This document shows positions 5,525 to 20,855 of a stretch of 64,000 bases of DNA, piece by piece; position 1 is the first letter of the stretch, and every line of letters begins with the position of its first letter. The notes under the pieces were generated by a model. That model was not told the DNA's origin. It searched no databases and was given only the letters and a program-made list of their open reading frames with translations. This DNA comes from an uncultured Thiomicrospira sp. (GTDB lineage Bacteria; Pseudomonadota; Gammaproteobacteria; CAKMZV01). The stretch lies in contig OZ239628.1 in NCBI GenBank assembly GCA_965195345.1, positions 1,711,553-1,775,552 of the forward strand, given 5' to 3'. Position numbers and translations under genes: made by a program.

Positions 5525-6721
5525 ATGTTTGATTTACTGAGACAAAACAAAACCACACTTTATGGTGCTAGCGCCTTAACCATCATCATATTAATCTTGG
5601 TCTGCTCAATTCCCTTTCAACAAGGACCGCTGATTTTTGAAACACTTCATCACGTCACTGTTCAATTCTTAAAAGGAAACGATCCCTATTCTTCCTTTCC
5701 ACAATACTATTTATACAAATACAGTCCCACTTTTTTGCTTTTAGTCTTAACCCCATTAGCGCAGTTTGAAGTACTACCTGCTGCAATACTGTGGCAGTTC
5801 ATTTCAGTGGGATTGTGGTTCTTTGGATTGATGCTATTGCTTGCTAAATTGCCCTTTAAAACATGTCCAAGTTGGGGTTGGATGCTGTTGATTGTTTTTT
5901 CAACCTTACATGATATTTTCGCAAACAGCGTTTATCTTCAATCAAATGCTATCGTACTAGCAGGCATGATGTTTGCAACGCATTTTTATCAAAAAAAACA
6001 CTGGGCTTTGGCTGCTTTGATGCTTGCCTTTGTAACTAACATGAAAATATTTCCTATTGTTTTTATGCTTCTCCTTTTCTGTGACAGACAATACCGATTT
6101 ATTATGTGGAGCGTCTTATTTTCAATGCTTTTTGCCATAGTTCCTTACGTCACTATAGGAATCGGAAAAGCAAACCTTCTATACCAAAGTTGGATGAACA
6201 ACTTAATTATTGATCGCTCTCTGATATGGGGGGAAGATATTCATCATTACCTCAGTATTAAGCCTTTCAGTCAACTGCACTTTAACTATGTGTGGGGAGA
6301 TAATTACATTGTTTTGTTAGCAGCAGTCGCACTGGTTGTCGCATGGATTGTTGTTCGTCATCGAGACAAACAAGCTTTTTCTACTGTACAAACACACCAA
6401 ATATTGGCACTCTCTTTATCATTCATTTTATTATTCAATACCCGCACTGAAGGACCTTCTCTAGTTTTTCTGACTGCCATATACCCTTTCCTCTGGTCAT
6501 GGATATACACTCAGTCTACCAAGAAACGTTTTTATAGTTGGTTATTAACAGCTCTATTCATTCTAACCTCTTTATCAACAACCGATATATTCAGAAATAC
6601 TTGGATTCAACAAATCTCATGGGACAACAATCTGCGTGCATTGGGCATCCTATTTCTTTTTATATGGATTATTCTCACCGTCATCAAGCGACAAAAAATG
6701 ACGGAGAAAGAAGGCGTTTAA
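5525..6721 (+). CDS. polytopic membrane protein, possibly DUF2029/GT87-like glycosyltransferase
   Basis: 398-aa, more than 10 TM segments. Adjacent to the O-antigen-ligase-like gene with a 22-nt gap, likely co-transcribed. Confidence 0.4.
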   Translation: MFDLLRQNKTTLYGASALTIIILILVCSIPFQQGPLIFETLHHVTVQFLKGNDPYSSFPQYYLYKYSPTFLLLVLTPLAQFEVLPAAILWQFISVGLWFFGLMLLLAKLPFKTCPSWGWMLLIVFSTLHDIFANSVYLQSNAIVLAGMMFATHFYQKKHWALAALMLAFVTNMKIFPIVFMLLLFCDRQYRFIMWSVLFSMLFAIVPYVTIGIGKANLLYQSWMNNLIIDRSLIWGEDIHHYLSIKPFSQLHFNYVWGDNYIVLLAAVALVVAWIVVRHRDKQAFSTVQTHQILALSLSFILLFNTRTEGPSLVFLTAIYPFLWSWIYTQSTKKRFYSWLLTALFILTSLSTTDIFRNTWIQQISWDNNLRALGILFLFIWIILTVIKRQKMTEKEGV

Positions 6722-6757: not shown

Positions 6758-9283
6758 TCACAATCTTGAAATAATCTTTTCAATCTGTTCTTTGCTATTG
6801 ATTGAGCAATTACTGTTCAGCACACGTTCAAGCTGTGCTCTTGCTTTAAGCTTATTGCCTTCAGGCAAGTGTTGTACACCATCAAAACCAGTGAATATAC
6901 GAGCTGCCAATTGTGCGTTTTCGCTATCCACTCTAATCAAAGACTCCGATACCAATGCGTACCCTTTCCCATCTTCACGATGAAAAGCAACCATGTTTTG
7001 CATAAACGGTACCAATAATCCGCGCACTCTATTGGGTAGATTCCAATTGAAATCAGGATGATCAAACAATGCTTCAGCGACTTCTACTGTTGTTTCAACT
7101 GGCGGAAGCATTGATAAAGCAAACCAACGATCAATCAGCAAAGATTCTCCTTTTGCTTGCTCATAGAAATCTGCTAAAAGCCCTGTCCGACGACGGCATT
7201 CTTTTTTTGGTCTAAGCAGTGCCGCTGCAAGAGCACCCAGCCTTTCTGTCATATTCGTTGCCGTTTCAAACTGTTTGGATGCGTAATCTGGCTGATCAAT
7301 AGCAATAAAACGTAGTAGCTGATTTCTCAATGAACGAATACCTATTTGATCTGCCGCTGGACTATAGGGTTGAGTTAATTCTGTTGATAACTGAGTATAT
7401 CGCTCTATAAGTACGTCACCCAGCTCTTTCCCAATTTCTTTGATTATTTCTTGGGTGCGTTTGCATAAATTTAAAAAATCCATTCCCCCTTCCGATAACA
7501 ATGAACGAATTCCAGGCATTTGTAAAAGAAAGCTCAATAGTTTTGGATCAATGCCTTGCTCAGCAACAAGAATGGAGATTGCTTTAACAAGCGTATTTAT
7601 ATCGAGTTTTCCAAGCATTGCAGCTTGAAAATTGCGTCTCGTGGCAAACCAGCGATTATATGCATCATTGTCGTATTGCATGAGATGCAACCAATCACTA
7701 TCACTTGCATCCCACTCCAAACGGACTGGGGAAGACAATCTTCGCAATGGGGAGAGTACGCTGCCTTCAGGTACATCTTTAACAGTTATTTCTAAGTGGG
7801 GTTCGTTAAAGACAATCATTTCATCATCTTTCAAGCAGCAACCTTTACTATCTATAACACCATAGACAAAAGGAATGGGTAGTATGGCATTATTCTGGCA
7901 ATGTTGCTGCAATTCAATAGTTAAACAATCATTCGACCATTTTGAACGCACTTTCAATGTTGGCGTGCCTGCTTGATCATACCAACCTTTCAACATCGAC
8001 AAATCTACTCCATTCGCCTCTCCCATCGCATCCCTAAATTCTTCAACAGTTGCGCCAGTGCCATCGTGTTTTTTTAAATAATGTCGCAACCCCTTATTAA
8101 AACCCTCACGTCCAAGTATTGTTTGGTATAGGCGGACTACTTCTGCGCCTTTTTCGTATATAGTATGTGTGTAAAAATTATTGATTTCAGCATACTCTTT
8201 GGGTTGGATTGGATGCGACAATGCGCCCGCATCCTCAACAAATTGTAAATCCATCAAAAGCTGAACGTCTTCAATGCGTTTGCAAACACCATCGCGCATA
8301 TCAGCCGTAAACTCCTGATCACGAAATACCGTCAACCCCTCTTTTAAAGTTAATTGAAACCAATCACGGCAAGTTACGCGATTGCCCGTCCAATTATGGA
8401 AATATTCATGAGCAACCACTGACTCAATACGTTCATAATCAATGTCAGACGCCATGTCAGATTGGGCAAAAACCAATTTGGCATTGAAAATATTCAGCCC
8501 TTTGTTTTCCATCGCACCAGAGTTGAAATGATCAACTGCAACGATGTGAAAAACATCCAAATCATAGCTCAGCCCGAATCGCTCCTCATCCCAGCGCATC
8601 GACTTTTTTAAAGATTCCAAAGCAAAATAACATTTATCAATATGTTGCCGCTCGGCATGAATTTTCAAAGTAACTTCTCGACCCTCATTAGTGGTAAAAC
8701 TGTCGGCTTTTGTAAGTAATGGACCTGCAACCAAGGCAAATAAATAACAAGGTTTAGGATGTGGATCTACAAAAGTTGCAAAATGCCGCTGTAAGTCCAG
8801 CGATCCTTGGTCGATACAATTACCATTACTTAACAAGATGGGACATCGCTCAATATCGGCTTCTATTCGCACTGTAAATTGTGAAAGAACATCTGGGCGA
8901 TCGGGAAACCACGTAATACGTCGAAAACCTTCTGCTTCGCATTGTGTACAGTAGATACTATTTGAATAATATAACCCTTCAAAACATTTATTGCGCTTAG
9001 GATCAATGCGTACAATAGTTCTAAGATGCACATCATTTGGCAAAGCATGAATACTCAATGTATCTTTGTCTATCGTATATTGTTCACAGTCTAATAATGC
9101 GCCATTTACTTCTGCTGAAATCATCTCAAGGTCCTCACCGTTGAGCACCAACGTATTCTCTTCACCTTTACTCTGAAACCTCAAATAACTATGCACTTCA
9201 CAGTAGTCATCATAGAGTTTAAATGTCAAAGAAACCATTTTAAGGTTCCACGGATAAGCCTTATAATCTTTCAAATAAAACAT
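6758..9283 (-). CDS. pepN: aminopeptidase N (M1 family)
   Basis: GAMEN plus HEYFHNWTGNRVT (HEXXH) and LKEGLTVFRDQEF zinc-binding motifs; 841 aa. Confidence 0.95.
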   Translation of the reverse strand: MFYLKDYKAYPWNLKMVSLTFKLYDDYCEVHSYLRFQSKGEENTLVLNGEDLEMISAEVNGALLDCEQYTIDKDTLSIHALPNDVHLRTIVRIDPKRNKCFEGLYYSNSIYCTQCEAEGFRRITWFPDRPDVLSQFTVRIEADIERCPILLSNGNCIDQGSLDLQRHFATFVDPHPKPCYLFALVAGPLLTKADSFTTNEGREVTLKIHAERQHIDKCYFALESLKKSMRWDEERFGLSYDLDVFHIVAVDHFNSGAMENKGLNIFNAKLVFAQSDMASDIDYERIESVVAHEYFHNWTGNRVTCRDWFQLTLKEGLTVFRDQEFTADMRDGVCKRIEDVQLLMDLQFVEDAGALSHPIQPKEYAEINNFYTHTIYEKGAEVVRLYQTILGREGFNKGLRHYLKKHDGTGATVEEFRDAMGEANGVDLSMLKGWYDQAGTPTLKVRSKWSNDCLTIELQQHCQNNAILPIPFVYGVIDSKGCCLKDDEMIVFNEPHLEITVKDVPEGSVLSPLRRLSSPVRLEWDASDSDWLHLMQYDNDAYNRWFATRRNFQAAMLGKLDINTLVKAISILVAEQGIDPKLLSFLLQMPGIRSLLSEGGMDFLNLCKRTQEIIKEIGKELGDVLIERYTQLSTELTQPYSPAADQIGIRSLRNQLLRFIAIDQPDYASKQFETATNMTERLGALAAALLRPKKECRRRTGLLADFYEQAKGESLLIDRWFALSMLPPVETTVEVAEALFDHPDFNWNLPNRVRGLLVPFMQNMVAFHREDGKGYALVSESLIRVDSENAQLAARIFTGFDGVQHLPEGNKLKARAQLERVLNSNCSINSKEQIEKIISRL

Positions 9284-9326: not shown

Positions 9327-9968
9327 TTATTGGGCTGATATAGGATTGAAATTTAATCGTTTTTTTAACTTAAACAAATGCTCGTATCCTTCCCCTCCTG
9401 GTACATTTTTTTCTTTATTTGAAAGGACATGTTCAACTTCAAAATATCTTTTGCATTCACTGTAAACATCTTCTGCAGTTAGGGAGAACGGAGGCGATTT
9501 TTCGCTGTTATGCTCCAATGCGATCAAAAAAACTTCTCCATTATCACGCAATAATTCAGCAATTTTTGCCAAATAATCATCCCGCATATGCTTTGGAAGT
9601 GCGATCAATGCTGCTCGATCGTACACTGCATCAAAATCATTGGCATAGGTAAAAAAGTCCGTACAGTGAACGAAAAGGTTTTGGCATCTATATACTTGTT
9701 CAGCGTTATTCTTTTGTATTTGCGCCTGTAAACCCGTTTCTGCAAAAAACGATTCTATAGCGTGTTGATTAATTTCCACTGCGTGCGTCTCAACACCAAG
9801 ATTCTTAAAAAAAACCATGCATTGCGCCTTGCCACACATTGGAACCAAAATCTTTTTAGGCTGACCCATCACTTCCTTCCAATATCTAATCAACAACGGA
9901 TGCATGCCTCCCAAATCAAAACCAATACGGTTTTCATGCCAACGACTATTCCAATATTCAATATCCAT
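9327..9968 (-). CDS. tpm: thiopurine S-methyltransferase family (SAM-dependent)
   Basis: EYWNSRWHENRIGFDLG...LVPMCGKA pattern typical of bacterial TPMT. Likely start at the internal Met (MDIEYW); the track ORF extends to 10013. Confidence 0.7.
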   Translation of the reverse strand: MDIEYWNSRWHENRIGFDLGGMHPLLIRYWKEVMGQPKKILVPMCGKAQCMVFFKNLGVETHAVEINQHAIESFFAETGLQAQIQKNNAEQVYRCQNLFVHCTDFFTYANDFDAVYDRAALIALPKHMRDDYLAKIAELLRDNGEVFLIALEHNSEKSPPFSLTAEDVYSECKRYFEVEHVLSNKEKNVPGGEGYEHLFKLKKRLNFNPISAQ

Positions 9969-11415
9969 AATCAAAAAACCGTTGCATTGTTTCCTCGCTT
10001 CCCAAAATAGCAAAATCTATACGAGCACGAGTTAATGCTGTGTATAGTAGCGAACGCATGAACAATCGTTTATCCATAGTGTCATCGACCCAAAGCCAGA
10101 CGCCATCAAACTCAGATCCTTGCGACTGATGAACAGTAAGAGCCCACGCTTGAGAAAAGTAAACAGAAGCCTCATCTATCAATATCGCTTTGTTCTCATG
10201 ATTAAAAACCACCAAAAAATCCCCTTTCTCGCTTGTGACCTTAAAGCCTTGATCGCCTTTTGAGTATTGCGAACCACTTCCTTCCAATATAATCGGCAAA
10301 ATGCCTGCTAAGGCAAAAAAACTGGACAAATGGCTGTTAATTGCCATCAATCCTTTGCTCCCTTTACGTTGAGGAGTCAGCAGGGCAAATCGTGACTGAC
10401 TATTCAATAACTCTTGCCATTTTTCTTCTTTAACTAATTCTTGCCAATTTGCAACTTTGTCTGAATAAAGTTGTTCTAAATGCTGAACTTTATTTGCTTC
10501 TCCCAAAAATAATTGAGCATGCATGTCTTCTGCTTTGAAGACTGAAAACTCATTATTGAGAACCGCTAGAGCAAGACGGTCTATTCGACTATCACCGCCA
10601 AAACGGTAACGTTGCTGTAAATACACTATATTTGCAGGCTGATACTCTTCAACCAATTGAATGACACCCCCTAATTCGACACTATCAAGCTGATTTGCAT
10701 CCCCCATCCAAACAATGTGCCGTACCCATTTGCTTGCTTTGAGTAATACAGATGCTAACTCAAGAGTGAGCATTGAAACCTCGTCCACTACTACCAAATC
10801 GTAGGGTATTGATTCAACCTTAGCATTCACGTCTGATCCAAGACCGAGAATATTATGCAATGTGCCAACAGTAATATTACTGGCGTTATTATTTTTACTA
10901 AGCGATTCTCGTAATCTTGAAGCTGCTTTGTTTGTTGGGGCGCAAAGAGCAATATCTATGTCAGATTTTTGACTGATGCAGTACTCAACTAAATGCGTTG
11001 CAATAGTTGTTTTCCCAGAACCTGGTCCTCCGCAAATAAAGTTAAATCCACTTTGTAAACTTTTCTCTATTGCTTGATTCTGCTCTTCCCCTAACGCTGG
11101 AATAGAAGTATAAGCGGTTTCTATTCTTTCATTGCAACGATCCCGCAAAAGGTTTATTATGTTTTGTTTTGCTTGCCAGAATCGACCTGGAACCAATAAA
11201 TCTTCCTCAATCACCCAAGGTGCTAAGGTTGTTTTCACTATCGGCAATCCATACAATACTTTGCGATCAATTGACGGCGGAATCTGAACACCATACGTCG
11301 AATTTTCAAGACACTCAATAAACGCATCATCAAGAAAATCAATAACCGCATCAGGAGCGTCGACTTTAAAAGACTTTAATAAATTCCGTGTTAAATGCAC
11401 TTCAATCCGAATCAA
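9958..11415 (-). CDS. SF1 RecD/Pif1-like ATP-dependent DNA helicase
   Basis: Walker A GGPGSGKTT, Walker B LVVVDEVSM, C-terminal TVHQSQGSEFD...YTALTRAR motifs of the RecD/TraA helicase family. Confidence 0.75.
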   Translation of the reverse strand: MIRIEVHLTRNLLKSFKVDAPDAVIDFLDDAFIECLENSTYGVQIPPSIDRKVLYGLPIVKTTLAPWVIEEDLLVPGRFWQAKQNIINLLRDRCNERIETAYTSIPALGEEQNQAIEKSLQSGFNFICGGPGSGKTTIATHLVEYCISQKSDIDIALCAPTNKAASRLRESLSKNNNASNITVGTLHNILGLGSDVNAKVESIPYDLVVVDEVSMLTLELASVLLKASKWVRHIVWMGDANQLDSVELGGVIQLVEEYQPANIVYLQQRYRFGGDSRIDRLALAVLNNEFSVFKAEDMHAQLFLGEANKVQHLEQLYSDKVANWQELVKEEKWQELLNSQSRFALLTPQRKGSKGLMAINSHLSSFFALAGILPIILEGSGSQYSKGDQGFKVTSEKGDFLVVFNHENKAILIDEASVYFSQAWALTVHQSQGSEFDGVWLWVDDTMDKRLFMRSLLYTALTRARIDFAILGSEETMQRFFDYGY

Positions 11416-12675: not shown

Positions 12676-14604
12676 ATGGACGTACTAAATAGACATGACA
12701 ATTATACAGAAACCAAGTTAATCAACTCAAACGAATCGAGGAAAATGATTATGATCCAGAAACACCCCTTACTATCTATACTGCCTATACTGCTCATAAC
12801 TATGAGCTCCTACGCATCCGCCACTAAGGTCAACTGGTACGACTGGAATAAATCAGCTTTTGAACAAGCAAAAAAAGAAAAAAAAATGATCCTCATCAAT
12901 GTTGGTATGGAAGGCTGTGCCGCATGCGCTCGAATGGATAAATTTACTTACGACGATCAGAGCGTAGCAGACATAATCAATAAGTACTTTATTCCTATCG
13001 CTGTTGACAGCGAGGCACGCCCTGATATTGGCGAGCGCTACTCCGATTGGGCATGGCCTGCCACTGCCTTTTTAAGCCCCGATGCAGTACAAGTCTTCGC
13101 TATGGCAGGTAATCGTTTTCCCAGAAACTTTATCCCTATTCTCAATGATTTGATCGACAAGCAAACCAAAGGCATACTAAAACCCGATCCTAATTCACCG
13201 TATGCCGCGCCACCTAAACCAGTAAAAACTGCACTTGACGACATTCGCAATCAAATTCGTAACCAATTAGATCGCAATCTAAACGAGAGTAATGGTGGCT
13301 GGAGCAATAGTGCCGTTAATATGGAATACAGTGGTTCTCGCTTGCGCCATCTCCTCTTTCGTAGCCATTTATACGGCATGCAAAATCTTGAAAAAATTGC
13401 TTTGAAAACCGTTGATAATTATGTACGTTCGATTGATCCAGTCTGGGGAGGAGCTTATGAAGTTGTATTCCACCAAAACGCCAAAGTACCTCAGCGCTTT
13501 GAAAAAATAAGAGCAATTCCTGAAAAGAGAATTTCTTCACAAGCCAATGCCATAAGCGGTTTTGCATTAGCATATCAATTAACAAAAGATGAAAAATACC
13601 GCAAAGCAATGAAGTCAATGTCGTCATTTTTGCATAACTGGTTCACATCGCCCAAAGGATTGTTCTACACGAATCAAAAATCAGAACCAATCGAATTCCC
13701 TGATAATTTGCAAATGCAAGATTATTGGGTTATTGAAGATGATGCAAAGCGTCGCGCTTTAGGCATTCCACCAATTGATCATGCCACCTATACCGACCAA
13801 AATGGCGAGATGATATCGGCGTTAGTACTTGCATTTGAGGCTTTTTCCGATCCTCGTTACAAGGCAATGGCAGAACGCACTGCTAAAGAATTGTTACGCA
13901 CGCGTACCCATAAAGATGGCTGGATGATAAACGCTCAATTAAACAATCGCGTGGTTAATGATGCTCGCATGCGTCCCTATGACATAACTCAACGCCCCTA
14001 CTTGAGCACTCAGGCTAAATTCGGACAAGCACTGCTTGATCTCTATCGCATAAATGGGAATAGCGAATTACTCATTGCTGCTCAACGCATTGCCGATGCC
14101 ATGATAGATCAATTAGGAGATAGTGAGAATGGAGGCTTTTGGGGAGCACCATTAGATGATGTATCTGCGCTTATAGCTCCAAGAAAACCCATTGAAGATA
14201 ATGGCAGTGCTATTTCCTTTTTATATGACTTATCCGTTTATGTTAAAGAACCAAAGTATGAAGAAATCGCACGCCTTGCCGCTCAAGGTATATCTGATCC
14301 ATCCATACTAAGACGAGAAGGAAAAATCACTGCTCACTTAGGGTTAGGGTTAGAGAAACTAAGTGCTGAGTACGTCGAGTTTTCTATCGTAGGCGATGAA
14401 AACGATCCAGCTGCCAAAGCACTTTATCAAGCAGCAAACCATGTCTATCACCCACGAAAAATCGTTCACTTTGAAAAGCCAGGACGATACCCGAAAAAAG
14501 ATTTTGCTGCAGCATACATCTGTAATCCAAATCGCTGTTCAGTGCCATTAAAAACGCCTGAAGAAGTTGTTAAAGTCGCGGAAAGTTATCGTTCGCCTCA
14601 ATAG
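12676..14604 (+). CDS. thioredoxin-domain protein of the DUF255/YyaL family (N-acyl-glucosamine-2-epimerase-like C-terminal barrel)
   Basis: N-terminal signal peptide then thioredoxin-like block (MILINVGMEGCAACARMD...IPIAVDSEARPDIGERY). Probable true start at the internal MIMIQKHP, about 12745. Confidence 0.7.
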   Translation: MDVLNRHDNYTETKLINSNESRKMIMIQKHPLLSILPILLITMSSYASATKVNWYDWNKSAFEQAKKEKKMILINVGMEGCAACARMDKFTYDDQSVADIINKYFIPIAVDSEARPDIGERYSDWAWPATAFLSPDAVQVFAMAGNRFPRNFIPILNDLIDKQTKGILKPDPNSPYAAPPKPVKTALDDIRNQIRNQLDRNLNESNGGWSNSAVNMEYSGSRLRHLLFRSHLYGMQNLEKIALKTVDNYVRSIDPVWGGAYEVVFHQNAKVPQRFEKIRAIPEKRISSQANAISGFALAYQLTKDEKYRKAMKSMSSFLHNWFTSPKGLFYTNQKSEPIEFPDNLQMQDYWVIEDDAKRRALGIPPIDHATYTDQNGEMISALVLAFEAFSDPRYKAMAERTAKELLRTRTHKDGWMINAQLNNRVVNDARMRPYDITQRPYLSTQAKFGQALLDLYRINGNSELLIAAQRIADAMIDQLGDSENGGFWGAPLDDVSALIAPRKPIEDNGSAISFLYDLSVYVKEPKYEEIARLAAQGISDPSILRREGKITAHLGLGLEKLSAEYVEFSIVGDENDPAAKALYQAANHVYHPRKIVHFEKPGRYPKKDFAAAYICNPNRCSVPLKTPEEVVKVAESYRSPQ

Positions 14605-14642
14605 AGTGGTGTAGAGCTCTTCTGCATCTTCTTTTCCCTGAT

Positions 14643-15062
14643 ATGGTTTCAACTCAAACCTTCCACATTGATCATCTGCATCCCCGTAGCGCGTTTGAAA
14701 AAAAGATGTTCAAATCATATAATTTCCTGCAAAGTAACGAGACATTACATGGATTTTTCTCTGATTCAAAGCATTGGAACTCCATAGCAAATCTTCATTT
14801 ACTCAATGGCTCGCCGAATCAATCAAAAAGTGACAGGCCTTTAGCTGAATGGCTCAATGATAACAATGTCAATTTGCGAGCACAAGATCTGCTTGTTGAA
14901 GAGGTTAGTTTAGACTTCGAAACGTTCAAAGAGTTCTATGAAAAACGAAGGGCAAACCTAAAAGAAAGATTGAAAAGCCGTGTGTTCATGTCAGCGCAAT
15001 TATCATTGCAACCAAAAGCTGAAGACTCAGATGATGAAGTGGCAAGGGATGCAAATATTTAA
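14643..15062 (+). pseudogene. C-terminal fragment of a DUF1524/HNH(His-Me finger)-type nuclease (GmrSD/DUF262-partner-like)
   Basis: HIDHLHPRS...N...LLNGSPNQSKSD resembles the DUF1524 catalytic block. Only 139 aa; no N-terminal DUF262-type domain; begins right after the upstream gene. Confidence 0.4.
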
Positions 15063-15282
15063 TATAGTTGCTTTATTTTAAATTTTATGTACGAGCAGCC
15101 ATGATTGATTTATCCCAATTCAACACAATTGTGAACAAGCACCAAGCAATAGATCAATGATTTGGTGATGTTGGATCAACCATAGGCATTCCTCAGGAAA
15201 TTAACGACTGCTGCAAAGGCTAAGTACTTTTTGCAAGTCCAGCAAAAGTTGTGTGCAATTGAACTAGTACTTGTTAGTTTTA

Positions 15283-15471
15283 TTAATTATCAAACCCTGA
15301 CACTCTTTTTAATTCTAAAATACCGTCTTGTCGCACTAAAAAAGTTGTACCGTTCTTTCTTTCAAGTCGATATGATTTAGGGGTTTTCTTTATATACTTA
15401 ACACCACTTTCATAATTTATATCGTATTTTCCAGTGCTAAATACAATATCGTAATAACTACCTATATTCAT
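15283..15471 (-). CDS. hypothetical small protein (possibly a gene fragment)
   Basis: 62-aa ORF in a low-coding-density stretch (15.06-15.8 kb). Confidence 0.2.
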   Translation of the reverse strand: MNIGSYYDIVFSTGKYDINYESGVKYIKKTPKSYRLERKNGTTFLVRQDGILELKRVSGFDN

Positions 15472-15818
15472 TCTTTCGCCTTAACTTGATAATTTTTTTA
15501 ATCTACGATTCTTGTTAATTTTCAAACAAAATTATTAAGATACTTTTGTTCTAAATTTCAATAAATTCAATCTCAATAAATTCATGCTTCATTATCAGAT
15601 AATCTATATCTGAATATTTTAGATTGCTCAGCATTATAATTACTCACCATTTTACTAACCGATGAAACCACTAAAAAAACTTTCCCACCGAGAAGTAGGA
15701 AGTGATAATTTCAACAGTAATAACAATCTGCAAAAACTTTGAACCAATGATTAGCATTCGCAAGTTCGCCTGATCGAAGAAGCTTTTCACCAAGAAATGT
15801 AGAATTAGGAAACATAAA

Positions 15819-16325
15819 ATGGGATCACAAGACAAGAAAAATATAAATCAATTTACTCCACAAGAAACTTTTAAAATAGCAAAGGAGACGCGTGATTTTG
15901 AAATTAAGTTATTTTGGCAGCGTACGAATTATTTTTTGCTACTTAATTCTGCTGTTGCTGGTGCTTTTTTATATTTTATGAAGCCGACGGAAGACGTCGT
16001 AGTATTACAAATTGCATTCTGTGTTATTGGTGGTTTTGTTTGCTTGGCATGGATAAAGGTAGGTTTAGGTAGTAAGTATTGGCAATCACATTGGGAGCAA
16101 GTGCTCGTTGACTTACAGAAAAGATTTGACTTGTTTGAGGACGATCTTTTTAGTGACAAGAAAACCGACGAACGAGTTAGGAGAAATTTAAAAATGGAAA
16201 GTTGCTACGATCACTGCGTTCTTAAAAAACCTTCTGTAAGTCTGTGGATGCACCGCACCGCACGTTTCTTTTTACTGATTTGGATATTTGCTTTCTTCTA
16301 CACAAGTTGTCAATTGGTCGTGTAG
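15819..16325 (+). CDS. hypothetical membrane protein (about 3 TM) in the defense island
   Basis: 168 aa: hydrophilic N-tail, 2 TM helices, charged linker, third C-terminal hydrophobic helix. AGGA-type RBS is absent but ATG is preceded by an A-rich leader. Confidence 0.45.
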   Translation: MGSQDKKNINQFTPQETFKIAKETRDFEIKLFWQRTNYFLLLNSAVAGAFLYFMKPTEDVVVLQIAFCVIGGFVCLAWIKVGLGSKYWQSHWEQVLVDLQKRFDLFEDDLFSDKKTDERVRRNLKMESCYDHCVLKKPSVSLWMHRTARFFLLIWIFAFFYTSCQLVV

Positions 16326-16360
16326 CTTACTATGTTTTATGACTTAAAAAGCACCCAAAA

Positions 16361-16519
16361 ATGGAAAGGCTGATAGTTGTGACGCTCTTTCTTGCTTTGA
16401 TGGGTGGGTGTGCTAAAAATTCCAAATTAACATCTAAAAAGGAAATTATAGGTTTAAAACCAGCGCTTAGCAAAAGCCAAATAAAGGATATAGCTTATGA
16501 AACCACACATATTTATTAG
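16361..16519 (+). CDS. putative small lipoprotein (52 aa)
   Basis: MERLIVVTLFLALMGGCAKN: signal peptide plus lipobox LMGGC. Below the track length cut-off; found by reading. Confidence 0.3.
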   Translation: MERLIVVTLFLALMGGCAKNSKLTSKKEIIGLKPALSKSQIKDIAYETTHIY

Positions 16520-16664
16520 TCATTGTCATAAAGACAATAAAAAGTATCTGAATGGACTTGCAGAAACATCAAAACAGTTTAATTCTGCTAGATCTCTGCC
16601 AGATATATCGATTTGGTGGGATGGAAAAATTTCCGCTGGACAAAAATTTAACTTCAGAAAATAA
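16497..16664 (+). pseudogene. TIR-domain N-terminal fragment (55 codons)
   Basis: MKPHIFISHCHKDN...LPDISIWWDGKISAGQKF matches the TIR betaA-alphaA-betaB core (hFISHxxxD ... hxhWhDxxxhxxG) and then stops; the remainder of the domain is absent. Confidence 0.4.
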
Positions 16665-16713
16665 ACCATCGATGTTTTATTTGATTTAAAAAGTCAAGTC
16701 AATAAGGATTCCT

Positions 16714-19149
16714 ATGAGTATTAAATTATCGGATATGATTGAAGGGATTGACCCATCAAATACTGTGTTGTTCTTCGGCGCGGGCTCATCAATTCCTTCT
16801 GGTGCGCCTAGCGTTACTAAGATTAGTGAGAGCATTTCACAGAAATTCAATATAGATTCTACAGGATACGACTTAGCTGAATTAACAAGCCTCGTAGAAC
16901 AAAAGAAATCAAGAGGCGAATTAATCAATTGCCTGCGAGACATGTTTAATAGAATAAGAGTTACTGGCGCTCTGCTTAATTTGCCCCTGTACAATTGGAA
17001 GAACATATACACGACAAACTATGACAAGCTCATTGAGCAGTCATATCAGAAAAAAGAAAAACCAATATCTGTAATAACTTCAAACTATGACTTTAGAGAG
17101 CAAAAATATCCAGAAGCAACGAAGCTATATAAGTTACATGGCTGTATCGATAAAGACAAATCCGATGGAAATCACAGCAGAATAATAATTTCTGAATCAG
17201 ATCACGACAATACATCTGAATATCGTGAAGCATTGTGGGACGCATTTAAATTTGATCTAAATGGTGGGAGCGTTGTTATTATTGGTTATTCGCTTGCAGA
17301 TATCCACATTAAAAATCTGATTGATCGTGCTATTTCAATCAAGAACAAGTCATCAGACACTCCAGCATCCATAAACTTAGTCTTATTCGAAAAAGACGAG
17401 ACGCGCGCATCTTTACTTGAAAGAAGAGGCATTAAGGTAGCATTTGGCAGTGTCGATAATTTTTTTGTTGAATTGCAAAGAAAGAATACTCCTAACCCAA
17501 TAGTTCATAAGTCGACAGGTGACCCTCTTGATAATCAATATGAATTGCAACCCATTACCTTGAAGGTTGCAGATGAGCTTCGTAATATTGAAAAAAACGT
17601 AAGCGCAATGTTTCAAGGCTGGCCTGCGACCTATTCCGATATCAAAGCGAACCTGACCTTCGAAAGAAGTATAGCGAGAAAAATAGACTCGTATTTTAAT
17701 TCAGACAACTCTTTATGCGCTTGTTTGCTCGGGGCTAGCGGCATGGGCAAGAGCACTACTGCACGTAAAGTAATGCTAAGACTTAAAGCCTCAGGGCTTC
17801 ATTGCTGGGAGCATAAAGGCAACCACAAGTTGCTTTATCGTGAATGGCGATCCGTAGCCGTTGAGTTAAAGACAAGAGAGGAACGAGGGATTATTTTTAT
17901 TGATGATGCACACAGTCATTTGCATGAAATAAATAATTTGGTTGATCTTTTGTCAGCAGATGATAATTACTACTTAAAGATTATTCTCACATCAACCAGA
18001 AACCATTGGGGTCCTCGAGTTAAAACTGCTAATTTATTCACGAAAGGGAAGGAATTTTTATTAAAGAAATTAGATCAAGTTGAAATTGAAGAGCTACTAT
18101 CTTTAGTGGAATCTCATTCAGACCTACAACCCCTGATTGAAAAAAGTTTCTCTGGTTTTTCCAGATCAGAACGAAAAAAACGGCTTGTTGCAAAGTGTGA
18201 ATCGGATACGTTTGTATGTTTAAAAAATATTTTTGCCTCTGAACAATTTGATGATATTGTGTTACGTGAATTCGCTGAGCTAGATAATGATCTTCAGGAA
18301 ATATATAGAATCGTTTCAGCTCTGGAAACCGCAGGGGTAAATGTTCACAGACAGCTAGTCGTCCGACTTCTTGGGCTCTCCCCAGATACTCTGTCTGCTT
18401 CTCTAATTAATTTAATTGATATCATTCACGAGTATTCGATAAGCGAGCGTGAAGGAATTTATGGATGGAAAGGACGCCACTCCGTCATTGCCGAGATTGT
18501 CACTAAATATAAAATGGTTGATGAAGAAGAATACTACAAATTATTTGAGACTGTTATTGATAACATAGTCCCAACGTATGATATTGAAATCAGAACAATA
18601 AAGCAGCTCTGTGCATTTGATGCTGGAATTAGTCGATTTCCAGACAAGTATGCACGTAATAAATTACTTAGAAAAATGATCTCAAAAGTACCTGGAGAAC
18701 GAGTTCCCAGACATAGATTAATTCGTTACTTGATCGATCTTAACCAGTTAGAGAAAGCCGAAACTGAAATAAGGATATTCGAAAATGATTTTAAATCTGA
18801 AGGACCTTTAGAGCGCTACAAAATACTTCTTTTGTTGGCTCGGGCTGAAAAAAAGACTGGGATTCTATCTGATGATCGAATGGCTATTTTGCAGATGGCT
18901 AAAGAAAAAGCTGTCATAGCTGTAGGTCGATATAAAAATAATAAAAATATACTGAGGATCTATGGTGATGTTGGTCTAGAAATATACAAGCAATCACAAA
19001 ACTCCACAGTTTTCGAAGACTCCATGGAACATTTGAAAGAAGCTGAAACCCGGTTGGTTGACCCAGATGTTACGATTTCGATTATGTCGTTAGAAAGACA
19101 GTTTTCGAAGCTTCAGTCTGAATTTACGGAAGTCACAGATGCGCTTTAA
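16714..19149 (+). CDS. SIR2 (SIR2_2/ThsA-type) - NACHT/STAND NTPase - helical repeat sensor protein (bacterial NLR-like antiphage protein)
   Basis: N-terminal domain has FFGAGSSIPSGAP, TTNYDKLIEQ and KLHGC motifs of the defense-type SIR2 family. Middle domain has Walker A GASGMGKST, Walker B GIIFIDDAH and a NACHT-like ILTSTR motif. C-terminal roughly 300 aa are predicted helical repeats. RBS AAGGAT precedes the start. Confidence 0.8.
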   Translation: MSIKLSDMIEGIDPSNTVLFFGAGSSIPSGAPSVTKISESISQKFNIDSTGYDLAELTSLVEQKKSRGELINCLRDMFNRIRVTGALLNLPLYNWKNIYTTNYDKLIEQSYQKKEKPISVITSNYDFREQKYPEATKLYKLHGCIDKDKSDGNHSRIIISESDHDNTSEYREALWDAFKFDLNGGSVVIIGYSLADIHIKNLIDRAISIKNKSSDTPASINLVLFEKDETRASLLERRGIKVAFGSVDNFFVELQRKNTPNPIVHKSTGDPLDNQYELQPITLKVADELRNIEKNVSAMFQGWPATYSDIKANLTFERSIARKIDSYFNSDNSLCACLLGASGMGKSTTARKVMLRLKASGLHCWEHKGNHKLLYREWRSVAVELKTREERGIIFIDDAHSHLHEINNLVDLLSADDNYYLKIILTSTRNHWGPRVKTANLFTKGKEFLLKKLDQVEIEELLSLVESHSDLQPLIEKSFSGFSRSERKKRLVAKCESDTFVCLKNIFASEQFDDIVLREFAELDNDLQEIYRIVSALETAGVNVHRQLVVRLLGLSPDTLSASLINLIDIIHEYSISEREGIYGWKGRHSVIAEIVTKYKMVDEEEYYKLFETVIDNIVPTYDIEIRTIKQLCAFDAGISRFPDKYARNKLLRKMISKVPGERVPRHRLIRYLIDLNQLEKAETEIRIFENDFKSEGPLERYKILLLLARAEKKTGILSDDRMAILQMAKEKAVIAVGRYKNNKNILRIYGDVGLEIYKQSQNSTVFEDSMEHLKEAETRLVDPDVTISIMSLERQFSKLQSEFTEVTDAL

Positions 19150-19524
19150 CAAAAGCATGTTGTCGGAGGAGTAGTTTTCTACTACGCCTCATTTAAAAAA
19201 ATGAAATACCTTTATCTCGAAATGCAATTATATTTAACAGAATTTGGAAGATGATTTGAGAGCGGACAATCATATACATTTTTAAGTAATACTAAGATTA
19301 ATATACTGACCTTCCCAGTTTTCTAAGCGCTCTTTTTGAAATAGTTTCTTCTTTGTTCTTAGTCCTCCCCACTTTACACCTGCGGGGGTATTGTGCGCCC
19401 AATGAGGATTGGGATATGATGGCACATGTCACTTTTGGAAAAAGTATAATTCACGCCGTGCCGTGCATCGTCCCTTCGCGAAGCACTTCAATTTTAAGTG
19501 GCCAATGATTGTGGTGCCAAACAA

Positions 19525-19839
19525 TTAGGGCGTTCTCAAATACCGATACATTGTAGGCTTAGTAATGCCAAACTGCTCACAAATACTAATGATTGAAACT
19601 TGCTTGCTGTCATAAAGAATTCGCATCTGCTCTATTTGCTTTTTAGTTAGTTTAATTTTTCTACCACCCTGCCTTCCTCTTGCTCGAGCAGCTTCGAGCC
19701 CTGCTTTAGTACGTTCTTTAATAAGTGTTCGCTCAAACTCAGCAAGTGCTGCAAATATATGGAATACTAACTGACCACTAAGCGTAGAAGTTTCAATATT
19801 CTCTGTTAAAGAATGAAAGGCAACTCCATTTACTTTGAA
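19525..19839 (-). pseudogene. serine recombinase (resolvase/invertase) C-terminal fragment
   Basis: minus-strand translation ...GQLVFHIFAALAEFERTLIKERTKAGLEAARARGRQGGRKIKLT...FGITKPTMYRYL is the E-helix plus HTH of the Tn3/Hin resolvase family. No start codon, an in-frame stop lies immediately upstream, and the catalytic N-domain is missing. Confidence 0.6.
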
Positions 19840-20063
19840 TTAGTAACAGTATGAAATAACTCCTATGATGAGCAAAGTGGCAGAATTGATTAATGTCAGT
19901 TTCTGCGGTAAGAAAAACAACCGTTGATTAATACAACAATACAAGCACACAAAAATCATGCTTTTAAAAATCATAATCTACTTTCATGGCAATAACCAAT
20001 GATATGTAAAGAGAACTTTTACATTAACTGGTAAATATCATTGCGCAAAGCTACAATACAAGC

Positions 20064-20855
20064 ATGCTCAATGCTTTGTATATAGCCTGTATTTTCAGCT
20101 TCGCCTCACTTATTGTTTTATTTCTTACTACAGCAAAAAAAACAAGACAGTTGCGAGCAAGCAGTGTGCATTGGTTCTTGATTGCTTTTGCGACATTTTT
20201 TCAGGCAACATTATTAACATTACTGATTGTTCAAGAGACGCAAATCCTTCTCGGATTTTCAAACGCAACGATGTTAGTGTCATTTTGCATCTGGTGCATG
20301 ACACTGCTTTTAATGCGCTTAAGCAATACTGCTTACTCGTTGCTTCTATTGTCTTTTTTAAATATTTTCGTCTATTTATTCGCTTGGCTTTCACCCGATT
20401 TGAACGCTGTAGTCATCCGTGGGGAAACCGCCTTTCATGTTGTTCTTTCAATTCTTTCATACAGTATAGTAGGACTAACTGGGTTGCAAAGTATTATTCT
20501 ATTAGCAACAGAAAATATGCTCCATGAGAAAAGAGGACTAAAGCTCCTTTCACTACTCCCTTCGCTTAATGAATTAGAAAATGCGTTGTATTTTTTACTT
20601 TGGATGAGTTTCATCAGCTTAAGTATTGCCCTATTTAGCGGGTTCTTAGTGCTTGATGATATGTTCGAACAACGCGTAGTACACAAAACTTTTCTTTCGC
20701 TACTGTGCTGGGGAATGATCGCTGTACTACTGGTTTTGAAATTGACTTGTGGCTGGCGTGGCAAACAACTAAGTATTGGCATTATGCTATCGACTTTAAT
20801 ACTTTTTTTAGGATTTTCGGGTTCTAAATTCATTATTGAAAGGCTATTATCCTAA
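20064..20855 (+). CDS. inner membrane protein of the cytochrome-c-assembly (CcsA-like) family, YpjD-like
   Basis: 263 aa, 8 TM; family resemblance to YpjD/CcsA-like proteins. Confidence 0.5.
   Translation: MLNALYIACIFSFASLIVLFLTTAKKTRQLRASSVHWFLIAFATFFQATLLTLLIVQETQILLGFSNATMLVSFCIWCMTLLLMRLSNTAYSLLLLSFLNIFVYLFAWLSPDLNAVVIRGETAFHVVLSILSYSIVGLTGLQSIILLATENMLHEKRGLKLLSLLPSLNELENALYFLLWMSFISLSIALFSGFLVLDDMFEQRVVHKTFLSLLCWGMIAVLLVLKLTCGWRGKQLSIGIMLSTLILFLGFSGSKFIIERLLS

Follow-up and report, generated by a model that had tools for sequence, protein, structure and literature searches.

A 55-codon open reading frame (ORF) lying just upstream of a SIR2-STAND gene in an uncultured Thiomicrospira sp. 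is probably the dead 5′ fragment of a TIR-domain defence gene. It sits in a strain-variable island whose functional defence gene, judged from sequence comparison, appears to be the neighbouring SIR2-STAND gene, which is intact and Avs5-like. All positions are those of the window, i.e., the whole 64,000-nucleotide stretch of DNA that was analysed. The 55-codon ORF is referred to below as the stub, and it and its immediate surroundings comprise the following features.

16361–16519, + strand: orphan ORF of 52 aa with a lipoprotein-like signal peptide (...LFLALMGGC...), the lipobox judged by eye
16483–16488, + strand: Shine-Dalgarno-like AAAGGA, 8 nt 5′ of the stub ATG, read directly
16497–16664, + strand: the stub, a 55-codon ORF (direct reading and ORF listing)
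Within the stub: strand A (IFISH), helix A, strand B (ISIWWD) and BB loop (GKISAGQ), its TIR-like parts
16696–19166, + strand: the only DNA common to other SIR2-STAND loci, comprising the gene with 18 nt before and 17 nt after it; the stub falls outside this stretch
16714–19149, + strand: intact SIR2-STAND gene of 811 aa, Avs5-like (Pfam, full-length relatives and a match to EfAvs5)

The translation of the stub is MKPHIFISHCHKDNKKYLNGLAETSKQFNSARSLPDISIWWDGKISAGQKFNFRK (55 aa), and reading of the sequence confirmed both the ORF and the motifs quoted for it (hFISHxxxD and IWWDxKIxxGQ) in an earlier note on this DNA. Its start resembles that of a gene. Due to an in-frame TAG at 16491–16493, upstream of the ATG, the frame is unable to extend further upstream, and the ATG with its Shine-Dalgarno sequence sets strand A at residue 5, exactly where genuine proteins with an N-terminal TIR domain have it. 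The stub occupies an otherwise non-coding gap on the same strand as the neighbouring genes. Its stop codon lies at 16662–16664, leaving 49 nt before the SIR2-STAND start at 16714, in agreement with the earlier description of the stub as directly upstream of the SIR2 gene. Public gene callers annotate the stub, in a cluster whose size is one. The 52-aa orphan ORF overlaps the start of the stub by 23 nt and could be a further fragment or a small lipoprotein gene. Many ORFs of 30–60 aa are present in this region.

Profile searches of the stub gave a divided answer. Two PADLOC ThsB1 models matched the stub, namely PDLC00420 at E = 0.0038 (residues 3–52 on profile positions 2–47) and PDLC00430 at E = 0.005, whereas Pfam and NCBIfam searches returned no match even at E ≤ 10. 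None of ten PADLOC controls, comprising the reversed peptide, six shuffles and three overlapping or neighbouring ORFs, gave a match at E ≤ 10; the chance level can be gauged from six additional small control ORFs, one of which reached E = 0.02. In a second approach, a TIR_2 HMM of our own was built from 27 real TIR_2 proteins. Among the 1025 six-frame, stop-to-stop ORFs of at least 30 aa in the window, the stub ranked first with this HMM, scoring 7.3 bits at a window-wide E-value of 0.24, and its score was equalled by one of 5000 shuffles. When the same 27 proteins were compared with the stub by hhalign, residues 2–51 were aligned at P = 1.1e-4 with a probability of 56%, and the match spans strand A, helix A, strand B and the BB loop.

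Matches to individual proteins were also obtained. In a tblastn search of 7.3 Gb of plasmid sequence with the stub, five matches were found at E ≤ 10, and two of these five fall, in register, on the N-termini of proteins whose TIR_2 domain was confirmed by Pfam. For the Rhizobium protein, whose TIR_2 domain begins at residue 7, residues 4–43 were aligned with stub residues 2–49; for the Novosphingobium protein, whose domain begins at residue 14, residues 14–52 were aligned with stub residues 5–51. Pairwise BLASTP of the stub against the Rhizobium and Novosphingobium proteins gave E-values of 5e-7 and 1e-6. Control tblastn searches with the reversed peptide and one shuffled peptide yielded similar numbers of chance matches, none of them in a TIR gene. 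In an 11-sequence alignment (A2), the stub carries the invariant residues F6, S8 and G48 together with the nearly invariant I7 and D13; the strand A motif (hFIS[YH]..D) and the BB-loop glycine are present and in register with the start of the TIR domain. The layout of the stub follows that of bacterial TIR domains (TIR_2, PF13676; ThsB): after a short leader comes strand A, reading hFIS[HY] and followed by D, then helix A, next a strand B that contains W.D, and finally a BB loop bearing the invariant G. It departs from them in that eight extra residues separate helix A from strand B, H stands where Y is usual, and neither the catalytic glutamate nor strands C to E are present; it also falls below every curated Pfam and NCBIfam threshold, with no detectable relatives. 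The claim that the stub represents the first third of a TIR domain thus held in part: the specific, in-register matches from PADLOC, hhalign and tblastn agree with it, whereas the null results from Pfam, NCBIfam and the PDB and the HMM E-value of 0.24 do not.

These null results bear on the foremost alternative, which is that an AT-rich intergenic stretch happened to remain open for 55 codons and to encode a coincidental hFISHxxxD...WWDG...G, with no TIR ancestry. Such a chance ORF is possible, albeit clearly the less probable explanation. It is consistent with the marginal window-wide E-value and with calibration of our HMM, for which a chance ORF among 2756 unrelated ORFs of other loci scored 7.2 bits, equal to the stub; the first thirds of the two TIR proteins found by tblastn, both from outside the HMM training set, scored 13–24 bits. 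No homologue was found in the protein collections searched. A phmmer search of the stub against all PDB sequences returned chance matches only (RNF4, CyaY and an enterotoxin), and in a word-indexed search of 5.8 billion proteins the stub peptide matched only itself. When 1.84 billion cluster representatives were searched exhaustively with phmmer, the stub and six others were recovered; the five of these six that were retrieved are internally repetitive, with scores summed over multiple stretches, and were rejected as artefacts, and none of the five is a TIR protein. The AlphaFold2 model of the stub, predicted from the single sequence, has a pLDDT of 49 and contains one helix but no confident fold. 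The abundance of ORFs of 30–60 aa nearby also fits a chance origin, as does the manner of selection: the stub was first chosen by eye for its TIR-like look, and hence the tests are not independent of that choice.

Conversely, several partly independent comparisons agree on the N-terminus of a TIR domain in the correct register, and controls of the same composition do not. From sequence alone, the similarity to TIR domains is specific and correctly placed along the domain, yet its significance is marginal (window-corrected P roughly 0.05–0.25). The odds of TIR ancestry are raised by the context, i.e., by the position of the stub in an unoccupied gap on the strand of its neighbours, by a ribosome-binding site and ATG placed as in real TIR genes, and by the location in a defence island that holds other gene remnants. 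Taken with this context, TIR ancestry of the stub is likely.

The stub covers about 40 of the 122 positions of the TIR_2 profile, so that "first third" is an accurate description, and its 55 aa fall short of a complete flavodoxin-like fold (about 120–140 residues). The nearly invariant glutamate in column 97 of alignment A2 falls past the end of the stub; we take this glutamate to be the catalytic residue of TIR NADases. The earlier observation that no downstream frame continues the domain was upheld, as read-through of the stop codon and both frameshifted tails all lowered the TIR profile score. A search for the C-terminal remainder of a TIR domain downstream of the SIR2-STAND gene, performed with our own HMM, revealed no ORF resembling TIR.

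The adjacent gene, by comparison, is complete. Its product matches the Pfam families SIR2_2 at residues 97–242 (1.4e-26) and nSTAND_NTPase5 at residues 300–433 (1.6e-13), and it has many full-length relatives of about 810 aa, sharing 52–80% identity, in marine Gammaproteobacteria, Pseudomonas and Desulfobacterota. The structure of EfAvs5 is available as PDB 9JAP (PMC11897194), and this sequence was matched by the SIR2-STAND protein at E = 1.1e-13 over residues 66–549, across the SIR2 and NOD regions. On account of the SIR2_2 and nSTAND5 domains, the full-length relatives and the match to 9JAP, the gene is assigned as an intact, Avs5-like SIR2-STAND gene. As in Avs5 (AVAST type 5), a SIR2 NADase is followed by a STAND NTPase and a C-terminal region within one gene of about 810 aa, and relatives with 59% identity occur in Pseudomonas aeruginosa. 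There are also differences: the similarity to EfAvs5 is distant, and the NTPase belongs to Pfam nSTAND5, whereas PaAvs5 is named with nSTAND3. None of the 23 PADLOC matches of the gene was to a model named Avs5 or AVAST. The SIR2 domain is closest to those of ThsA (PADLOC ThsA1, E = 4.6e-24; PDB ThsA 6LHX and 8BTO). The SIR2-STAND protein is collinear with its relatives of about 810 aa from residue 1. An in-situ domain swap from TIR-STAND to SIR2-STAND was considered and rejected, given this collinearity of the 811-aa protein and relatives that are up to 80% identical. In a different genome, a Candidatus Endobugula sp. MAG, a truncated copy of a SIR2-STAND homologue was observed (positions 6001–6450 of locus L009) that retains only the last 150 codons (residues 661–810), with 82% DNA identity to the window.

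The surroundings of the SIR2-STAND relatives are relevant to whether the stub belongs to this gene. Neither the stub nor any TIR was found in the 16 related SIR2-STAND loci or in the sister-strain locus described below. The neighbours of the relatives vary, often including a resolvase or relaxase, and the upstream DNA of the relatives cannot be aligned beyond the ribosome-binding site; for this reason, the junction cannot be placed. It is conceivable, yet very unlikely, that the stub is a functional small gene, either encoding a translated mini-TIR peptide or serving as an upstream ORF that tunes expression of the SIR2-STAND gene 49 nt downstream. Both its Shine-Dalgarno site and its ATG are intact, and a scan of the + strand from the gene for the 8xMP membrane protein to that for the SIR2-STAND protein revealed nothing resembling a terminator. 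Furthermore, the DNA common to the relatives starts just 18 nt before the SIR2-STAND gene, and transcription of that gene must therefore originate from sequence upstream of it. However, the stub is missing from all 16 related loci and from the sister strain and is a singleton in protein collections; neither the catalytic glutamate nor two thirds of the fold are present in it, and structure prediction gave no confident model. Promoter-like sites were about as frequent as in shuffled sequence (16 against an expected 15.9). More specific versions of this proposal, in which the stub is translated and retained for function, either as an upstream ORF or captured promoter-leader setting the level of the Avs5-like NADase or as a TIR-derived beta-alpha-beta peptide interfering with TIR assemblies, are slightly less credible still. 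The suggestion of a rare mini-TIR ORF in the earlier note found no support, the peptide being a singleton among billions of proteins, without the conserved glutamate and with a pLDDT of 49.

Least probable of all is that the stub is the decayed TIR partner of a Thoeris-like pair, in which a TIR sensor signals to a neighbouring SIR2 protein: the proximity of the neighbour's SIR2 to ThsA SIR2 domains and the identity of the stub's best profile matches as ThsB would fit such a pair, but the neighbour contains a STAND NTPase and is devoid of signal-binding SLOG or Macro domains, its relatives stand alone with no TIR gene nearby in 16 loci, and the stub lies outside the DNA common to those loci. 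A classification of the locus as Thoeris (ThsA + ThsB) was likewise rejected, as the neighbour is of the SIR2_2 + nSTAND5 type without SLOG or Macro and the TIR-like ORF is truncated.

The reading of the stub as a dead TIR-gene fragment draws further on the nature of the site, for which these additional features are needed.

14618–19414, no strand: strain-variable island of about 4.8 kb, of lower G+C (28–38% against about 40–45% in the flanks), where the sister strain differs
14643–15062, + strand: C-terminal remnant of HEC-05 (GmrSD-like), 139 aa (PADLOC PDLC04151, E = 6.6e-27)
15819–16325, + strand: intact 8xMP membrane protein, 168 aa (PF24838, E = 8.1e-26, profile positions 2–134 of 136)
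19528–19839, − strand: 5′-truncated serine-recombinase (resolvase) gene (residues 80–180 of resolvases; Pfam Resolvase positions 91–144 of 145, and HTH_7)

The site lies between a thioredoxin-domain gene (12676–14604) and a cytochrome-c-assembly-like gene (20064–20855). A contig of a sister strain (L021; ENA ERZ25059891, ctg46046l) matches the window at 98.8% identity on both sides of the island, as far as 14617 on the left and from 19415 onward on the right. Between these points, window positions 14618–19414 are replaced by an unrelated 4.7 kb (L021 4644–9351) that has nothing in common with them. This cargo encodes a 389-aa protein, two membrane-like ORFs of 106 aa and 180 aa and an EamA transporter; no defence gene was recognisable in it, and the 389-aa protein has no recorded Pfam match or PADLOC match. 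The site is a genuine turnover hotspot, with different cargo between conserved flanks in close strains. The exchange of 14618–19414 for unrelated DNA, together with the other truncated genes present, bears out the turnover at a defence hotspot that had been proposed earlier.

In order, the island contains the HEC-05 remnant, an AT-rich gap, the 8xMP gene, the 52-aa ORF, the stub and the SIR2-STAND gene. The HEC-05 remnant corresponds to profile positions 484–595 of 600, the last fifth of a defence nuclease, and it starts about 25 nt inside the point at which identity to the sister strain ends (14617/14618); thus, the gene was cut at the left edge of the island. The gap at 15063–15818 is very AT-rich (G+C down to 28%) and has no substantial ORF. 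Searches of all its frames gave no credible family match, only a chance-level match to Cas5d (E = 0.02), and the stretch may be heavily decayed former coding sequence.

The 8xMP gene precedes the stub by 171 nt on the same strand, and its product is an orphan at 90% identity. Its homologues (seven from plasmids and nine from metagenomes) have varied neighbours, including PLD, GIY-YIG, HNH and DUF4238, with no TIR among them. Distant plasmid homologues are found beside PLD-like, GIY-YIG or HNH genes or within a type I restriction-modification operon, which suggests that 8xMP is a defence-associated membrane partner. No literature was found on this Pfam family.

Just outside the right boundary, in the flank common to the sister strain, lies the resolvase remnant, which comprises the C-terminal 104 aa and lacks the catalytic N-terminal part. 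It is carried on a module of about 0.7 kb (window 19398–20092) at the right edge of the variable region. The sister-strain contig has this module twice (7262–7954 and 9352–10029), as direct copies that bracket the EamA gene and are 91.7% and 98.8% identical to the window; the module may be the substrate on which recombination acts when cargo is exchanged.

Scans of the window for Rfam families and tRNAs gave no match. Like known defence-island remnants and hotspots, the island exhibits different cargo between near-identical flanks, lower G+C, a recombinase remnant at its edge and truncated defence genes beside an intact one. Nothing in it is unusual for such a site; no intact mobile-element boundaries or target duplications could be identified. 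Since the hotspot is littered with gene fragments, a TIR fragment within it is unsurprising. Elsewhere in the window, four tandem ORFs of 221–222 aa lie on the + strand at 44825–47886 (44825–45490, 45801–46469, 46511–47179 and 47221–47886); they have no Pfam match and resemble an array of paralogues that precedes a 1014-aa gene.

From these results, we infer that the similarity of the stub reflects descent from a real TIR gene and that the stub itself is inert; the mechanism of its neighbour is likewise inferred. The ancestor may have been a free-standing TIR_2/ThsB-like protein or a multidomain protein with an N-terminal TIR domain. Of this ancestor, the ribosome-binding site, the start codon and the TIR domain as far as the BB loop (its first third) would survive in the stub; the part that starts with helix B, conserved catalytic glutamate included, would have been lost through deletion or cassette replacement in the strain-variable island. 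With this glutamate lost, the stub would be unable to hydrolyse NAD. The working immune gene at the site would instead be that of the adjacent SIR2-STAND (Avs5-like) protein. In Avs5, assembly is triggered by a phage protein and is followed by NAD+ hydrolysis (PMC11897194; bioRxiv 10.1101/2025.07.08.663546). By analogy with EfAvs5 and PaAvs5, the C-terminal region of the SIR2-STAND protein would sense a phage protein, the NTPase module would assemble and the SIR2 domain would deplete NAD+.

It is plausible that the SIR2-STAND gene displaced the TIR gene. Replacement or disruption of such a gene by the SIR2-STAND gene was one of two proposals in the earlier note; no TIR remainder, flanking repeats or ancestral locus that would demonstrate it were found. 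Around the SIR2 cassette, a search for target-site duplications and for terminal or flanking repeats yielded only repeats at chance level. An ancestral locus that still contains an intact TIR gene was sought without success among the loci of the SIR2-STAND relatives, among those of the 8xMP homologues and in the protein searches. The comparison of orthologous loci, also proposed in that note, did not help this claim: the stub was absent from 16 of 16 related SIR2-STAND loci, and no intact TIR gene was found.

If this reading is correct, the locus would be a small, concrete case of defence-island turnover, in which an intact Avs5-like NADase gene is flanked by the wreckage of at least two defence genes, the first third of a TIR gene and the last fifth of HEC-05. 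For annotation, the lesson is that this 55-aa ORF, although called as a gene in public collections, is better handled as a probable pseudogene fragment than as a TIR effector. Together with the near-identical sister strain and its wholly different cargo, the locus agrees with the accepted view that genes are rapidly gained and lost at hotspots, and mechanistically it offers nothing new; the stub would be an ordinary kind of feature for a fast-changing defence island.
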